The translations under genes and the position numbers were made by a program. DNA of 64,000 nt from the NCBI RefSeq assembly GCF_003334315.1, contig NZ_QOWR01000019.1; one strand, 5' to 3'. The stretch is from Escherichia coli. Lineage in GTDB: Bacteria > Pseudomonadota > Gammaproteobacteria > Enterobacterales > Enterobacteriaceae. Shown in pieces: positions 4 through 64,000 of this stretch. Within the stretch, counting starts at the first letter, position 1; every line of letters begins with the position of its first letter. The notes beneath the pieces were generated by a model. That model did no database searches, was not told the origin of the DNA, and saw only the letters and a program-made list of their open reading frames with translations.

Positions 4-90
4 GTAGGCCGGATAAGGCGTCCCCGCCGCATCCGGCACAGGCACCGTGCTGATGTCTGATGCGACGCTGGCGCGTCTTATCAGACCTAC
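4..90. repeat. BIME: two REP (repetitive extragenic palindromic) units in opposite orientation, artJ-artM intergenic
   Basis: GC-rich palindromic units gccggataaggcgt..gccgcatccggca and tgatgcgacgctggcgcgtcttatcag..cctac match the E. coli REP family. Confidence 0.8.
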
Positions 91-7547: not shown

Positions 7548-8549
7548 TTAACGCGCCAGGAATGCGCGCCAGTGGGCGGCGACTTCCGCCAGTTGTTCGC
7601 GCGAGACGTCAAGATGCGTCACCAGGCGGACAATCGGCGAGGCGTTAATCAGCACGTTTCTCGCTTTCATGTATTCGCCTAACGCGGCAGCATTTTCTTC
7701 CCCGACGCGAACAAACAGCATATTAGTGTCCTGACGCATCACATCCGCGCCTGCTTCACGCAGTTGCTCCGCCATCCAGGCGGCGTTGTCGTGATCTTCC
7801 TGCAACCGTGCGACGTTATTTTTCAGGGCATACATCCCGGCGGCAGCCAGAATCCCGGACTGACGCATCCCGCCACCGGCCATTTTCCGCCAGCGGATGG
7901 CACGTTTAATGTAATCACGATTACCGACGAGTAATGAACCGACTGGCGTCCCAAGACCTTTCGACAGGCAAATGGTGAACGAATCACAATATTGCGTGAT
8001 CTCTTTCAGTTCGCAGCCGTAAGCCACCACGGCATTAAAGATGCGCGCACCGTCAACATGCAGCGCCAGATTGCGCTCGCGGGTAAATTCCCATGCTTCT
8101 TTCAGGTATTCACGCGGCAGCACTTTGCCGTTGTGGGTGTTTTCCAGACTGAGTAATTTGGTGCGGGCGAAATGGATATCGTCGGGTTTGATTTTCATCG
8201 CCACTTTATCCAGCGGTAGCGTGCCGTCGGCAGCCGCGTCGATGGGTTGCGGCTGAATACTGCCCAGCACCGCTGCGCCACCGGCTTCAAACAGATAGTT
8301 ATGCGCGGCCTGACCGACAATATACTCTTCGCCACGTTCGCAGTGACTGAGCAGAGCGACCAGGTTGGCCTGAGTGCCGGTAGGCAGAAAAATGGCGGCT
8401 TCTTTACCGGAAAGCTCTGCTGCATAGTCCTGCAGAGCATTAACGGTAGGGTCGTCTCCGTAAACGTCGTCCCCAACCGGGGCGGCCATCATCGCTTCGA
8501 GCATGGCGCGGCTCGGTCGGGTAACGGTATCACTGCGTAAATCAATCAT
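7548..8549 (-). CDS. ltaE: low-specificity L-threonine aldolase
   Basis: 333-aa PLP-dependent aldolase-like ORF; synteny. Confidence 0.9.
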
Positions 8550-25005: not shown

Positions 25006-25210
25006 GTTCACTGCCGTACAGGCAGCTTAGAAAAACCTACCGTCTTGGCTAGCGGTTGCAGCGAACGTTCACTGCCGTACAGGCAGCTTAGAAAGGAACA
25101 ATCTTGCAAAGGCTGTGAAAGTTGGCGTTCACTGCCGTACAGGCAGCTTAGAAATTCACAGGTAACATACTCCACCCACCATGTTCACTGCCGTACAGAC
25201 AGATAAAATG
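25006..25210 (+). CRISPR. orphan type I-F CRISPR array remnant: 3 intact 28-bp repeats plus 1 degenerate terminal repeat
   Basis: repeat gttcactgccgtacaggcagcttagaaa at 25006-25033, 25067-25094, 25127-25154; degenerate copy gttcactgccgtacagacagataaaatg at 25183-25210; spacers of 33, 32 and 28 nt; no cas genes in window. Confidence 0.92.
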
Positions 25211-32593: not shown

Positions 32594-35500
32594 TTGAGCC
32601 AGGAATACACTGAAGACAAAGAAGTCACATTGACAAAGTTAAGTAGCGGCCGCCGCCTTCTGGAGGCGTTGCTGATCCTTATTGTCCTGTTTGCCGTCTG
32701 GTTGATGGCTGCCTTACTAAGCTTTAACCCTTCGGACCCCAGCTGGTCGCAAACGGCCTGGCATGAACCTATCCATAATTTAGGTGGGATGCCCGGTGCG
32801 TGGTTGGCAGATACGCTGTTCTTTATTTTTGGCGTGATGGCTTACACCATTCCCGTCATTATTGTCGGCGGTTGTTGGTTTGCCTGGCGTCATCAGTCCA
32901 GCGACGAATACATTGATTATTTTGCCGTTTCGCTACGCATCATTGGCGTTTTGGCGCTCATCCTTACCTCCTGTGGTCTGGCGGCAATCAACGCTGACGA
33001 TATCTGGTATTTTGCCTCCGGTGGCGTCATTGGCAGCTTACTAAGCACTACGCTACAACCACTGCTACACAGTAGCGGGGGAACTATTGCGCTGCTCTGC
33101 GTTTGGGCAGCGGGCCTGACGTTGTTCACCGGTTGGTCATGGGTGACCATTGCTGAAAAACTCGGCGGCTGGATTTTAAACATTCTCACCTTCGCCAGTA
33201 ATCGTACCCGTCGCGATGATACCTGGGTCGATGAAGATGAGTATGAAGACGACGAAGAGTATGAAGATGAAAATCACGGCAAACAGCATGAATCACGCCG
33301 TGCCCGTATTCTTCGCGGCGCGCTAGCGCGTCGTAAACGGTTGGCGGAAAAATTCATTAATCCGATGGGGCGGCAAACAGACGCTGCGTTGTTCTCCGGT
33401 AAGCGGATGGATGATGACGAAGAGATTACCTACACTGCACGCGGTGTGGCTGCCGACCCGGACGACGTCCTATTTTCGGGCAATCGTGCAACGCAGCCAG
33501 AATATGACGAATACGATCCATTATTAAACGGTGCGCCAATTACCGAACCTGTCGCTGTAGCAGCTGCTGCTACCACGGCGACACAAAGCTGGGCTGCGCC
33601 GGTTGAACCTGTGACTCAGACGCCGCCTGTTGCCTCTGTTGATGTTCCACCTGCGCAACCTACAGTAGCCTGGCAGCCTGTACCGGGTCCACAAACGGGA
33701 GAGCCGGTTATTGCTCCTGCACCGGAAGGTTACCCACAGCAGTCACAATATGCGCAGCCTGCATTGCAATATAATGAGCCGCTGCAACAACCAGTACAGC
33801 CGCAGCAGCCGTATTATGCACCTGCAGCTGAACAACCTGCGCAACAGCCGTATTATGCCCCTGCGCCAGAACAACCGGTGGCAGGTAACGCCTGGCAAGC
33901 CGAAGAGCAGCAATCCACTTTTGCTCCACAGTCTACATACCAGACTGAGCAAACTTATCAGCAGCCAGCCGCTCAGGAGCCGTTGTACCAACAGCCGCAA
34001 CCCGTTGAACAGCAGCCTGTTGTGGAGCCTGAACCCGTTGTAGAAGAGACAAAACCCGCGCGTCCGCCGCTTTACTACTTTGAAGAAGTTGAAGAGAAGC
34101 GAGCCCGTGAACGTGAACAACTTGCGGCCTGGTATCAACCGATTCCAGAACCGGTTAAAGAACCAGAACCGATCAAATCTTCGCTGAAAGCACCTTCTGT
34201 TGCAGCAGTACCTCCAGTAGAAGCCGCTGCCGCTGTTTCCCCGCTGGCATCTGGCGTGAAAAAAGCGACACTGGCGACGGGGGCTGCCGCAACCGTTGCC
34301 GCGCCAGTCTTCAGTCTGGCAAATAGCGGTGGACCGCGTCCTCAGGTCAAAGAGGGGATTGGTCCGCAGTTGCCACGACCGAAACGTATCCGCGTGCCAA
34401 CTCGTCGTGAACTGGCGTCTTACGGTATTAAGCTGCCCTCACAGCGTGCGGCGGAAGAAAAAGCCCGTGAAGCCCAGCGCAATCAGTACGATTCTGGCGA
34501 TCAGTACAACGATGATGAAATCGATGCGATGCAGCAGGATGAACTGGCACGTCAGTTCGCCCAGACACAGCAGCAACGCTATGGCGAACAGTATCAACAT
34601 GATGTGCCCGTAAACGCAGAAGATGCAGATGCTGCGGCAGAGGCTGAACTGGCTCGTCAGTTTGCGCAAACTCAACAACAACGTTATTCCGGCGAACAAC
34701 CGGCTGGGGCGAATCCGTTCTCGCTGGATGATTTTGAATTTTCGCCAATGAAAGCGTTGCTGGATGATGGTCCACACGAACCGTTGTTTACGCCAATTGT
34801 TGAACCTGTACAGCAGCCGCAACAACCGGTTGCACCGCAGCAGCAATATCAGCAGCCGCAACAACCAGTTCCGCCGCAGCCGCAGTATCAGCAGCCACAA
34901 CAGCCGGTTGCGCCGCAGCCACAATATCAGCAGCCGCAACAACCGGTTGCGCCACAGCAGCAATATCAGCAGCCGCAACAACCGGTTGCGCCGCAGCAGC
35001 AGTATCAGCAGCCACAACAGCCAGTTGCGCCACAACCGCAGGATACCCTGCTTCATCCGCTGTTGATGCGTAATGGCGACAGCCGTCCGTTGCATAAACC
35101 GACGACGCCGCTGCCTTCTCTGGATTTGCTGACACCGCCGCCGAGCGAAGTGGAGCCGGTAGATACCTTTGCGCTTGAACAAATGGCTCGTCTGGTGGAA
35201 GCGCGTCTGGCTGATTTCCGTATTAAAGCCGATGTCGTCAATTACTCTCCGGGGCCGGTTATCACTCGCTTTGAACTTAACCTGGCTCCTGGCGTAAAAG
35301 CGGCGCGCATTTCTAACTTGTCACGGGACCTTGCCCGTTCACTTTCGACGGTGGCGGTGCGTGTCGTTGAAGTTATTCCTGGCAAACCCTATGTAGGTCT
35401 GGAGTTACCAAATAAAAAACGACAAACCGTTTATCTGCGCGAAGTTTTGGATAACGCCAAATTCCGCGATAATCCGTCGCCATTAACCGTGGTGCTGGGT

Positions 35501-36583
35501 AAAGATATCGCCGGTGAGCCGGTGGTTGCCGATCTGGCGAAAATGCCGCACTTGTTGGTTGCGGGGACTACCGGTTCCGGTAAATCTGTCGGTGTGAACG
35601 CGATGATCCTGAGCATGCTTTATAAAGCACAGCCAGAAGATGTGCGTTTCATCATGATCGACCCGAAAATGCTGGAGCTTTCGGTGTATGAAGGCATTCC
35701 GCACCTGTTAACGGAAGTCGTTACTGATATGAAAGATGCCGCCAACGCGCTGCGCTGGTGTGTTAACGAGATGGAGCGTCGGTATAAACTGATGTCTGCG
35801 CTGGGTGTGCGTAATCTGGCGGGTTATAACGAAAAAATTGCTGAAGCCGATCGCATGATGCGTCCGATTCCAGACCCGTACTGGAAGCCGGGTGACAGTA
35901 TGGATGCCCAGCATCCGGTGCTGAAAAAAGAACCATACATTGTGGTGTTGGTTGACGAATTTGCCGACCTGATGATGACGGTAGGTAAAAAAGTGGAAGA
36001 GCTGATAGCACGTCTGGCGCAAAAAGCCCGTGCCGCGGGTATCCACCTCGTACTGGCAACTCAGCGTCCATCGGTTGATGTTATTACTGGTCTGATTAAA
36101 GCGAATATTCCGACCCGTATCGCCTTTACCGTATCCAGTAAGATTGACTCACGTACCATTCTTGATCAGGCTGGCGCGGAATCACTGCTGGGGATGGGGG
36201 ATATGCTCTACTCTGGGCCGAACTCCACGTTGCCGGTACGTGTCCATGGTGCTTTTGTTCGCGATCAGGAAGTTCATGCCGTGGTGCAGGACTGGAAAGC
36301 GCGTGGTCGCCCACAGTATGTTGATGGCATCACTTCCGACAGTGAAAGCGAAGGTGGCGCGGGCGGTTTCGATGGCGCTGAAGAACTGGATCCGTTGTTC
36401 GATCAGGCGGTGCAGTTTGTCACTGAAAAACGCAAAGCGTCAATTTCTGGCGTACAGCGTCAGTTCCGCATTGGTTATAACCGTGCAGCGCGTATTATCG
36501 AACAGATGGAAGCGCAGGGGATTGTCAGCGAACAGGGGCACAACGGTAATCGTGAAGTGCTGGCCCCACCGCCGTTTGACTAA
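32594..36583 (+). CDS. ftsK: DNA translocase FtsK
   Basis: N-terminal TM domain, long Pro/Gln-rich linker, C-terminal FtsK/SpoIIIE motor (GTTGSGKS) and gamma domain; TTG start; 1329 aa. Confidence 0.95.
34810..35042 (+). repeat. in-frame 39-bp tandem repeat x6 in the ftsK linker ([10 protein letters not shown][QP]QY units)
   Basis: six near-identical 13-codon units read directly from sequence. Confidence 0.85.
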
Positions 36584-40086: not shown

Positions 40087-40106
40087 TACCCAATTTTTCT
40101 GAATCT

Positions 40107-40133
40107 AAAAAGCGCCTGCGGGCGCTTTTTTTG
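40107..40133 (+). terminator. rho-independent terminator of serS
   Basis: hairpin agcgcc-tgcg-ggcgct followed by T7. Confidence 0.8.
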
Positions 40134-40140
40134 TCTCCCT

Positions 40141-40154
40141 TTGATACCGAACAA
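40141..40154. promoter_or_regulatory. FNR-type site upstream of dmsA
   Basis: ttgataccgaacaa approximates TTGAT-N4-ATCAA; dmsABC is a known FNR-activated anaerobic operon. Confidence 0.45.
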
Positions 40155-40324
40155 TAATTACTCCTCACTTACACGTAATACTACTTTCGAGTGAAAATCT
40201 ACCTATCTCTTTGATTTTCAAATTATTCGATGTATACAAGCCTATATAGCGAACTGCTATAGAAATAATTACACAATACGGTTTGTTACTGGAATCAATC
40301 GTGAGCAAGCTTGAGTGAGCCATT

Positions 40325-46594: not shown

Positions 46595-48025
46595 ATGGCT
46601 GGGAATGTTCAGGAAAAACAGTTGCGATGGTACAACATTGCGCTGATGTCTTTTATCACTGTCTGGGGTTTTGGCAACGTTGTTAATAACTATGCCAACC
46701 AGGGGCTGGTGGTTGTTTTTTCATGGGTGTTTATCTTTGCACTCTATTTCACACCTTATGCGCTAATTGTTGGTCAGTTAGGCTCGACCTTCAAAGATGG
46801 GAAGGGCGGGGTCAGTACCTGGATTAAACACACGATGGGACCCGGACTGGCTTATCTCGCCGCGTGGACCTACTGGGTGGTGCATATTCCCTATCTGGCA
46901 CAAAAACCCCAGGCAATTCTGATTGCGCTCGGTTGGGCGATGAAAGGCGACGGTTCGCTAATCAAAGAATATTCAGTCGTAGCGTTACAGGGGTTAACGC
47001 TGGTGCTGTTTATCTTCTTTATGTGGGTTGCTTCACGCGGTATGAAATCGCTGAAAATCGTCGGTTCTGTGGCAGGGATTGCTATGTTTGTTATGTCGCT
47101 CCTGTATGTGGCGATGGCGGTAACCGCGCCTGCAATTACTGAAGTGCATATTGCGACCACAAACATTACCTGGGAAACGTTCATTCCTCATATCGACTTT
47201 ACCTACATTACCACTATTTCAATGCTGGTTTTCGCGGTTGGCGGAGCAGAGAAGATTTCTCCTTACGTTAATCAAACGCGCAACCCAGGAAAAGAATTTC
47301 CAAAAGGGATGTTATGCCTGGCGGTGATGGTTGCGGTTTGTGCCATTCTGGGCTCGCTGGCGATGGGGATGATGTTTGATTCGCGTAATATCCCGGATGA
47401 CTTAATGACCAACGGTCAGTATTACGCCTTTCAGAAGCTGGGCGAGTATTACAACATGGGTAATACTTTAATGGTGATTTACGCCATTGCGAATACCCTG
47501 GGACAAGTAGCGGCGCTGGTATTCTCGATTGATGCCCCGCTTAAAGTGCTATTAGGTGATGCTGACAGCAAATATATTCCAGCCAGTTTATGTCGTACCA
47601 ACGCTTCTGGTACGCCCGTTAATGGCTATTTTCTGACCCTGGTACTGGTGGCGATTCTGATTATGCTGCCGACTCTCGGCATTGGTGATATGAACAATCT
47701 CTATAAATGGCTGTTGAACCTTAATTCGGTAGTGATGCCGCTGCGTTATTTATGGGTATTTGTTGCATTTATTGCAGTCGTTCGCTTGGCGCAGAAATAT
47801 AAACCAGAATATGTCTTTATTCGTAATAAGCCTCTGGCAATGACCGTCGGGATTTGGTGTTTTGCCTTTACCGCCTTTGCCTGTTTGACGGGGATCTTCC
47901 CGAAAATGGAAGCCTTCACTGCAGAGTGGACCTTCCAGTTGGCGCTGAATGTTGCAACGCCGTTTGTGCTGGTAGGATTAGGACTGATATTCCCGCTGCT
48001 GGCGCGTAAAGCGAATAGTAAATAA
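46595..48025 (+). CDS. ycaM: APC-family amino acid transporter YcaM
   Basis: polytopic ORF; start at ATG 46595 (MAGNVQEK) gives 476 aa; supplied ORF is 5'-extended. Confidence 0.88.
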   Translation: MAGNVQEKQLRWYNIALMSFITVWGFGNVVNNYANQGLVVVFSWVFIFALYFTPYALIVGQLGSTFKDGKGGVSTWIKHTMGPGLAYLAAWTYWVVHIPYLAQKPQAILIALGWAMKGDGSLIKEYSVVALQGLTLVLFIFFMWVASRGMKSLKIVGSVAGIAMFVMSLLYVAMAVTAPAITEVHIATTNITWETFIPHIDFTYITTISMLVFAVGGAEKISPYVNQTRNPGKEFPKGMLCLAVMVAVCAILGSLAMGMMFDSRNIPDDLMTNGQYYAFQKLGEYYNMGNTLMVIYAIANTLGQVAALVFSIDAPLKVLLGDADSKYIPASLCRTNASGTPVNGYFLTLVLVAILIMLPTLGIGDMNNLYKWLLNLNSVVMPLRYLWVFVAFIAVVRLAQKYKPEYVFIRNKPLAMTVGIWCFAFTAFACLTGIFPKMEAFTAEWTFQLALNVATPFVLVGLGLIFPLLARKANSK

Positions 48026-48934
48026 TTATTGTGGTCGGTGACGCTGACTCTGGCAGATCTGACCCGTTTTTACATAATCGAGAAATGCGCGCAAGCCGCA
48101 GGACATATACTGGCGGTTTGGATAATAGATCTGGAAGCCTGGACGCTCTGTGCTCCAGTCTCCCAGTACACATTCTAAACGACCAGTATCAAGGTACTCC
48201 TTGATCTGTTCATAGAGCAGATACCCGATACCAGCACCCATCAAAACGGCCTCCAGTTCAGCATCAACATCATCCAGAATGATATTTCCTGCGACAGCAA
48301 TTTCCAGCTCCTTTGCAAATTGCTAGTGGAAAGGTTTGCCGCTGGGATAACGAAAAACAACACATTGATGATTAAGCAGATCATGAGGATGGCGGGGTTT
48401 GCCATATCTTGCAAAGTACTCTGGCGTTGCTGCTACACATAATTTCACTGGCGGGCCGATCGCCACGCTGATCATATCTTTTTCGACGATGCCACTAAGT
48501 CGAACGCCAGCGTCAAAGCCCTGTTGGACGATATCGACAAGAGAGTCGTCAGTTGTGAGCTCGACTTTAATATCAGGATATTCACGTGTGAAACCAACCA
48601 GTAAAGGCATTAAAAATATACGTGCAGCTACCCGGGCGGCATTGATTTTGAGCGTTCCTGTCGGTGTCAGACGAAAATCATTCATCTCATCTAACATGAT
48701 CTGAATTTCGTCGAAAGCTGGGCGCAATCGTTCATAGAGATTAGAACCCGCTTCCGTTAACGATACGCTTCGGGTTGTCCGATTGAATAAGCGAATTTTA
48801 AGACGTTGTTCCAGTGTTTTAATACTATGGCTAATGGCGGACGAGGATAAGCCTAATTCATCGCCCGCTGCACGAAAGCTTTGATTACGAGCCACGGCAA
48901 AGAAAGTGGCAAAGTCAGACATATTCATCCGCAT
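48026..48934 (-). pseudogene. ycaN: LysR-family transcriptional regulator YcaN interrupted by an in-frame amber (TAG) codon at about codon 204
   Basis: 203-aa N-terminal ORF (HTH MSDFATFFAVARNQSFRAAGDELGLSSSAISHSIKTLE) and 72-aa C-terminal ORF are in the same frame, separated by TAG at about 48322-48324 (+ strand cta). Confidence 0.75.
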
Positions 48935-49033
48935 TAGTGAAAATCCTTCATTAACTCATCCTGAATCATCACGTTTACAGGATTATGCCGCCTGCGTAAA
49001 GTGCGCTCCAGAACTTAACGTGGAGGTAAAATT

Positions 49034-49623
49034 ATGCAGTCTGAACGTATTTATTTGGTATGGGCCATCCTCGTCATGATTCATTGACCGCACATATTGC
49101 TGATGCGATCCATCAGCGGGCAATGGAGCGGAAAATACAGGTGACGGAACTCGATTTATATCGGCGTAATTTCAACCCAGTGATGACGCTGGAAGATGAA
49201 CCAGACTGGAAGAATATGGATAAACGTTATTCTCCAGAGGTTCATCAGCTTTATTCAGAGCTGCTTGAACATGACACGTTAGTGGTGGTTTTTCCTCTCT
49301 GGTGGTACAGCTTCCCGGCAATGCTAAAAGGATATATTGACAGAGTATGGAATAATGGGCTGGCTTATGGAGATGGGCAGAAATTACCATTCAATAAAGT
49401 TCGTTGGGTGGCGCTGGTTGGAGGAGACAAAGAATCATTTGTCCAGATGGGCTGGGAAAAAAATATAAGCGATTATTTGATAAATATGTGCAGTTATCTT
49501 GGTATTGAAGATGCCGATGTCACTTTCTTGTGTAATACAGTGGTATTCGATGGGCAAGAACTTCATGCGAGCTATTATCAGTCGTTATTATCTCAGGTAC
49601 GGGATATGGTAGATACACTATAA
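49034..49623 (+). pseudogene. ycaK: NAD(P)H:quinone oxidoreductase-family protein YcaK with apparent -1 frameshift in a C-run near codon 11 (or sequencing error)
   Basis: ATG at 49034 with RBS ggagg encodes MQSERIYLVWA then stops after 17 codons; the conserved frame (HPRHDSLTA...) resumes from ATG 49060 as the 187-aa ORF; a single extra C in gggcc would restore one continuous reading frame. Confidence 0.7.
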
Positions 49624-49661
49624 AATGTGTTAAAAACGCTGTAGCAGAATGAAGCGCGGAA

Positions 49662-49698
49662 TAAAAAAGCGGCAACTCAATAAAGTTGCCGCTTTACG
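49662..49698. terminator. bidirectional terminator between ycaK and pflA
   Basis: hairpin agcggcaact-caataa-agttgccgct flanked by A-run and T-rich tract. Confidence 0.75.
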
Positions 49699-49704
49699 GG
49701 GAAA

Positions 49705-63684: not shown

Positions 63685-63801
63685 ATGAAAATAACGACAG
63701 TCGGTGTATGCATAATTAGCGGAATTTTTCCGTTGCTGATTTTGCCCCAATTGCCTGGGACATTAACCCTTGCGTTTCTGACTCTCTTCGCCTGCGGGTG
63801 A
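63685..63801 (+). pseudogene. ycaI: 5' fragment of ycaI (ComEC-family membrane protein) truncated by IS1
   Basis: ORF MKITTVGVCIISGIFPLLILPQLPGTLTLAFLTLFACG runs into the IS1 terminal inverted repeat and stops. Confidence 0.7.
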
Positions 63802-64000
63802 TGCTGCCAACTTACTGATTTAGTGTATGATGGTGTTTTTGAGGTGCTCCAGTGGCTTCTGTTTCTATCAGCTGTCCCTCCTGTTCAGCTACTGACGGGG
63901 TGGTGCGTAACGGCAAAAGCACCGCCGGACATCAGCGCTATCTCTGCTCTCACTGCCGTAAAACATGGCAACTGCAGTTCACTTACACCGCTTCTCAACC
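63797..64000 (+). mobile_element. insA: IS1 left end (terminal inverted repeat plus 5' part of insA), continues beyond window
   Basis: ggtgatgctgccaacttactgatttagtgtatgatggtgtttttgaggtgctccagtggcttctgtttctatcagctgtccc is the IS1 terminus; downstream frame encodes InsA N-terminus [42 protein letters not shown]. Confidence 0.92.

Follow-up and report, generated by a model that had tools for sequence, protein, structure and literature searches.

A premature amber codon at Trp204 of the LysR-type regulator gene ycaN in a small clade of Escherichia coli

Introduction

Does an in-frame amber codon in the middle of ycaN inactivate this LysR-type regulator, or is the codon decoded so that a full-length protein is still made? 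The question is raised by a 64,000-nucleotide stretch of E. coli DNA, the whole of which is referred to here as the window, where a preliminary description had noticed a TAG separating an N-terminal and a C-terminal part of the gene. The window is chromosomal, spans artM to ycaI and has the same orientation as the 900-964 kb region of MG1655. About 300 positions separate it from MG1655, and 17 SNPs in 64 kb separate it from its closest complete genome, the pig isolate PI12.

In systems-level work on seven LysR regulators that had not been characterised before, the role of YcaN was given as 'unknown' (PMC9068703). That study found six ChIP-exo sites and reported ycaC and ycaD as the targets of YcaN, and in a BW25113 ycaN deletion mutant the adjacent genes ycaC, ycaD and focA were differentially expressed and a negative formate-utilisation phenotype was observed (PMC9068703). 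Furthermore, ycaM and ycaN of K-12 have been described as forming a convergent excludon (PMC12288877).

Results

Layout of ycaN and its premature stop

The features of the locus are as follows.

46595 to 48025, plus strand: ycaM, APC permease, intact, convergent with ycaN
48026 to 48934, minus strand: ycaN pseudogene, LysR-type regulator, orthologue of b0900, 302 codons of which codon 204 is an internal TAG
48326 to 48934, minus strand: translated N-terminal part of ycaN, 203 codons, comprising the HTH, the linker helix and, counted from its start, 113 residues of the effector-binding domain
48323 to 48325, minus strand: premature amber codon TAG (ancestral TGG, Trp204), plus-strand CTA
48026 to 48322, minus strand: untranslated C-terminal remnant of ycaN, 98 sense codons and the natural TAA, in frame
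48935 to 49033, no strand assigned: ycaN-ycaK divergent intergenic region, 99 bp, presumed shared promoter/operator
49034 to 49623, plus strand: ycaK, NAD(P)H oxidoreductase, frameshifted by loss of one C from what is a CCC run in MG1655

Translation of the minus strand from 48934 to 48026 gave 203 residues, a stop, a further 98 residues and the natural TAA, with the context ...YPSGKPFH*QFAKELEIAV... around the stop. The sum of 203, 1 and 98 codons is 302, as in K-12 YcaN. The amber codon seen earlier is therefore present and in frame, but its position of 48322-48324 has to be moved one base further right. Likewise, the C-terminal ORF of 72 codons lies in the same frame as the N-terminal part, but its extent is mechanical as it begins at a TTG inside the frame (48244); the frame is open over all 98 codons that follow the TAG, and the expectation that the two parts together amount to about 302 residues holds. 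This arrangement is not a product of chance because the 909-base gene differs from an intact allele at this one base only. The stop codons of ycaM and ycaN abut with no spacer between them.

An RNA family or a gene on the opposite strand at codon 204 was also considered and discarded. No Rfam hit was found near 48.3 kb, and the plus-strand ORF of 40 residues that overlaps the codon is a mechanical one and has no other support.

Direction of the change

The best complete-genome matches to the ycaN of the window, in strains CP53 and PI12, were identical at 908 of 909 bases. In the 81-base stretch around codon 204, TGG in CP53 against TAG in the window is the sole difference, and the CP53 gene translates into an unbroken protein of 302 residues with Trp204. 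A base-by-base comparison with PI12 places the change at plus-strand position 48324, where C is replaced by T; on the ycaN coding strand this is a G to A transition which gives W204*. The intact allele, WP_001242678.1, is carried by CP53, PI12 and many other strains. It shares every base with the window except the one in codon 204, and the ycaK frameshift background of the window is also present in CP53 and PI12. The 98 codons of the remnant past the TAG are identical to those of the intact allele. The suggestion of a single point change such as TGG to TAG was thus correct, and the proposed alignment with orthologues identified TGG (Trp204) as the ancestral codon. A naturally short protein was the other outcome envisaged, but the orthologues carry TGG at this position and run to 302 residues.

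Comparison with K-12 ycaN (b0900), annotated as the putative LysR-type transcriptional regulator YcaN of 302 residues, leads to the same assignment. The locus and the synteny ycaD-ycaM-ycaN-ycaK-pflA are shared with the window and the K-12 (MG1655) copies of ycaN are 99.3% identical to it in nucleotide sequence, such that both the place of the gene between ycaM and ycaK and its near-identity put it in the ycaN orthologue group. The HTH_1 and LysR_substrate layout and the length of K-12 YcaN match those of the window if the TAG is read as a sense codon. Unlike K-12, the window has TAG in place of TGG204 and its coding capacity is limited to residues 1-203. In close relatives the codon at the position of the stop is a sense codon and the product is longer, which is what defines a nonsense pseudogene.

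Frequency and reality of the TAG allele

Alleles were counted in 5,426 complete RefSeq E. coli genomes by using a 41-mer centred on codon 204 in megablast, which seeds a hit only when the centre matches. TAG at ycaN codon 204 was found by this search in none of the 5,426 genomes and TGA in one, JNEC-KY175 (NZ_AP045171.1). Consistent with this, each of the 3,314 complete genomes that have the 81-base stretch around codon 204 shows one or more mismatches to the window there. In a much larger assembly collection, the exact 203-residue YcaN product was found in 54 index blocks. Ten of these places were read, of which two have TAG, five have TGA and three have products cut by a contig end.

Both TAG-bearing places are very close to the window. 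The first, the GenBank draft GCA_004172665.1 (L007), shows 100% identity to the window across 6,612 bases, and its contig is present in four samples. The second, the Logan assembly of SRR14867000 (L011), has one mismatch to the window in 5,426 bases. As judged from these sequences, the TAG allele is restricted to a small clade made up of the window, GCA_004172665.1 and SRR14867000.

An allele that departs from the nearest complete genomes at one base and is missing from all 5,426 complete genomes is also what a sequencing or assembly error would look like, in which case the true genome would have TGG and an intact ycaN. However, the identical TAG occurs in the draft and in the Logan data, which were re-assembled independently from another run, and two independently assembled public datasets with the same allele make an assembly error unlikely. 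The change is moreover a substitution and involves no insertion or deletion within a homopolymer. We consider an error to be extremely improbable.

Suppression or readthrough

The preliminary description left two outcomes open, namely an inactivated or truncated regulator and readthrough in an amber-suppressor background. The first of these is favoured and the second found no support. Decoding of the TAG by an amber-suppressor tRNA of the supE, supF or supD type, or by efficient natural readthrough, would yield full-length YcaN and would agree with the 98 intact, in-frame codons past the stop, although a very recent mutation would look alike. Several observations speak against it. No tRNA with a CUA anticodon was found in the 64-kb window, where the single tRNA is serW with its normal GGA anticodon. 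The orthologous codon is TGG and not a conserved stop, and none of the 3,314 complete genomes compared over the 81 bases has TAG. TAG serves as the ordinary native terminator of amiD, cspD and lolA, and the strains most closely related to the window are wild isolates of porcine, human and other animal origin. Amber suppression in the source strain is therefore unlikely, and we regard production of full-length YcaN by either route as highly improbable. Wild-type E. coli reads through UAG at a basal level of no more than about 1%.

Programmed recoding, as in conserved readthrough or pyrrolysine-type decoding, involves a stop that is conserved across orthologues. Here, TAG is limited to a few near-identical assemblies, and there is no conserved recoding at codon 204 because orthologues have a sense codon. 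The TGG-to-TAG change in an otherwise intact gene resembles the classical laboratory amber mutants that are kept in supE, supF or supD hosts. Unlike those mutants, the window shows no sign of a suppressor tRNA within its 64 kb and has a background like that of wild isolates. A laboratory or recoded strain could be ruled out: the distances to MG1655 (about 300 positions) and PI12 (17 SNPs) indicate a wild-type lineage and not a K-12 suppressor strain, and the native TAG stops show that the window is not from a recoded strain.

Consequence for the YcaN protein

A Pfam search with the repaired YcaN gave HTH_1 (PF00126) at residues 7-63 (E=2.2e-20) and LysR_substrate (PF03466) at residues 91-290. 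HTH_1 lies upstream of the stop, so the helix-turn-helix expected of a LysR-type transcriptional regulator (LTTR) is kept in the 203-residue product. The stop removes residues 204-302, which include 87 of the 200 LysR_substrate residues or about 44% of the effector-binding domain, and the product therefore has no complete C-terminal effector-binding domain. The start of ycaK lies 99 bp from that of ycaN on the opposite strand, in the arrangement with a divergent neighbour that is familiar from LTTRs. The window ycaN is thus an LTTR gene by descent, but the protein it encodes falls short of a complete LTTR because it ends at residue 203 without those 87 residues.

Solved full-length LysR structures (3mz1, 3hhg and 3t1b) align to YcaN through about residue 290-297. 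In LTTRs, the effector-binding domain is built from two regulatory subdomains, RD-I and RD-II, with the polypeptide crossing back from the second into the first close to the C terminus. On this architecture, the 203-residue product would be without much of RD-II and without the returning strand. We infer from the sequence that the truncated YcaN is probably misfolded or non-functional; the HTH-bearing fragment could nevertheless retain DNA binding.

Recurrence of stops at codon 204

At least four separate origins of W204* can be distinguished, one of TAG (the window, L007 and L011) and three of TGA, each in a background of its own. The TGA backgrounds, represented by L006/L009/L012, by L008 and by L010, differ from each other at 32-75 positions in 4 kb. 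Most of the TGA-bearing places (L006, L008, L009, L010, L012 and JNEC-KY175) were observed to have an intact ycaK of 196 residues. As controls, exact products truncated at other ycaN codons that are one transition away from a stop were looked up likewise, with the following outcome.

203 residues, W204*: 54 blocks, 12 of them with contigs above 20 kb
144 residues, R145*: 45 blocks, none with contigs above 20 kb
189 residues, Q190*: 22 contigs, none above 20 kb
204 residues, Q205*: 14 contigs, none above 20 kb

These counts could be taken to mean that codon 204 is a recurrent, selected target and that loss or truncation of YcaN is adaptive, for example through an effector-blind or dominant-negative DNA-binding fragment or through Rho polarity that relieves convergent transcription into ycaM. 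The independent origins, the complete genome that also has TGA, the higher count of the 203-residue product with its 12 blocks on longer contigs and the reported ycaM-ycaN excludon all agree with such a reading. On the other hand, the search design itself picks stops at codon 204, and a transition can turn TGG into a stop in two ways but each control codon in one way. The counts are only about 1.2- to 4-fold apart and include products cut by contig ends, many of which were likewise found at the control lengths. A stop at codon 204 occurs in 1 of 3,314 complete genomes, and whole-gene deletions and an IS insertion show that any kind of loss is tolerated. Selection at codon 204 is hence a doubtful explanation with a slight chance of being correct. 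In its convergent form, where Trp204 would be selected for a 203-residue fragment that binds DNA and ignores the effector, or for loss of ycaC/ycaD/focA control, possibly with less antisense transcription into ycaM, we consider it very unlikely. We take the counts to be at most a weak enrichment that a few small clonal expansions explain, and to speak for neither a hotspot nor selection.

Mutational causes at this codon were examined in a similar manner. A Dcm methylation hotspot was ruled out, as the local plus-strand sequence is GCCAGTGG and not CCWGG, and a strong mutational hotspot is not supported by the control look-ups (54 versus 45, 22 and 14). A deletion or IS breakpoint at codon 204, which three contigs ending at codon 203/204 had suggested, was rejected because the deletion remnant found in other strains starts at gene base 797 and IS1 is inserted near codon 38.

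The isolate contigs L013 (GCA_040800585.1), L014, L015 and L019 end 0-5 bases from ycaN codon 204, one of them being 144 kb long. Such ends could reflect an insertion in some lineage or an effect of the exact-length search. In L013, about 400 bp are also deleted from within ycaK.

Loss of ycaK and ycaN across E. coli

The ycaK gene next to ycaN is itself disrupted in the window. CC is found at 49065-49066 where MG1655 has CCC, and an ORF of 187 residues restarts at the ATG at 49060. PGAP labels ycaK as 'frameshifted' in CP53, PI12 and 2018-11-3CC, and a 41-mer specific for the frameshift was found in 136 of the 5,426 complete genomes. The ycaK frameshift is older than the ycaN TAG because the former is present in these 136 genomes and the latter in none. 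All 50 of the other annotated protein genes checked in the window were intact.

Loss of ycaN is common in the species. Of the 5,426 complete genomes, 3,309 match the gene over 80% or more of its length; only bases 797-909 (the last 113) are kept in about 1,049 (~19%), and 1,068 (~20%) have no match. As an example, in the O157:H7 strain 86-24 (L016) pflA is directly followed by a ycaN remnant of about 111-113 bases and then by ycaM. The direct junction of pflA with the remnant indicates that a joint deletion, in the region corresponding to 48026-49700 of the window, removed ycaK along with most of ycaN. The loss of ycaK and of all but those 113 bases of ycaN applies to O157:H7 and to the about 1,049 complete genomes alike. 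In strain 2018-11-3CC, ycaN is interrupted by IS1 near codon 38. The TGA form of W204*, found in JNEC-KY175 and in several draft or metagenome contigs, leaves the same 203-residue product as the TAG of the window. The TGA alleles, the IS1 insertion and the ycaK-ycaN deletion all inactivate the same dispensable regulator, but they are mutational events separate from the TAG of the window and occurred in different backgrounds.

Other features of the window

Several further features were observed in the window. On the plus strand, homology to MG1655 ends at 63796 (63796-64000), and ycaI (ComEC family) is interrupted by IS1A from about 63852 to past the window end, which is also the case in PI12. 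A small orphan CRISPR array with no cas genes nearby is located between clpA and serW (25006-25154, plus strand). It contains three Rfam CRISPR-DR4 repeats of 28 bases, 60-61 bases from start to start, and its repeat or spacer number differs from that of K-12 because the MG1655 alignment breaks across 25034-25126. Within ftsK (32594-36583), a repeat-length polymorphism was noted in the linker (34811-35041, plus strand), a region that holds 6 of the 17 SNPs relative to PI12; ftsK has 1,329 codons in the window and in MG1655 and is 117 bases shorter in PI12. The start codon of ltaE at 8547 (minus strand) is ATG in the window and ATT in PI12, the oddity being that of PI12. In addition, Rfam matches were found to the sRNA STnc130 between serS and dmsA (40100-40234, minus strand) and to naRNA4, a REP-derived nucleoid-associated RNA (7-87, plus strand).

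Discussion

W204* in ycaN is an ordinary nonsense pseudogene of a dispensable LysR regulator. It very probably represents a recent, lineage-restricted loss of function that forms part of the decay of the ycaN-ycaK pair. In this lineage, ycaK was frameshifted earlier and the stop in ycaN then followed, by a G to A change on the coding strand (C to T at plus-strand 48324) which turned the TGG of Trp204 into an amber codon. Translation would stop after residue 203, with the HTH and the linker kept and residues 204-302 lost. The truncated protein would probably fail to fold or to assemble into the normal LysR tetramer, and may be non-functional or degraded. In many other E. coli lineages, both ycaN and ycaK have been deleted. 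No further mutations are found downstream of the stop in ycaN and the event is therefore young.

The loss of regulatory function would, on this reading of the sequence, have been close to neutral. It may not be strictly neutral because the K-12 deletion mutant shows transcriptome changes and a formate-utilisation phenotype.

The relevance of the finding lies mostly in annotation, where ycaN of this strain is a pseudogene (W204*) and not two ORFs, and the adjoining ycaK is a pseudogene as well. It also adds one small data point to the view that ycaN-ycaK is dispensable and has been lost repeatedly, by deletion, IS insertion, frameshift and nonsense mutation. Furthermore, members of the small TAG clade are natural ycaN nulls and could be used for studying this poorly characterised regulator.
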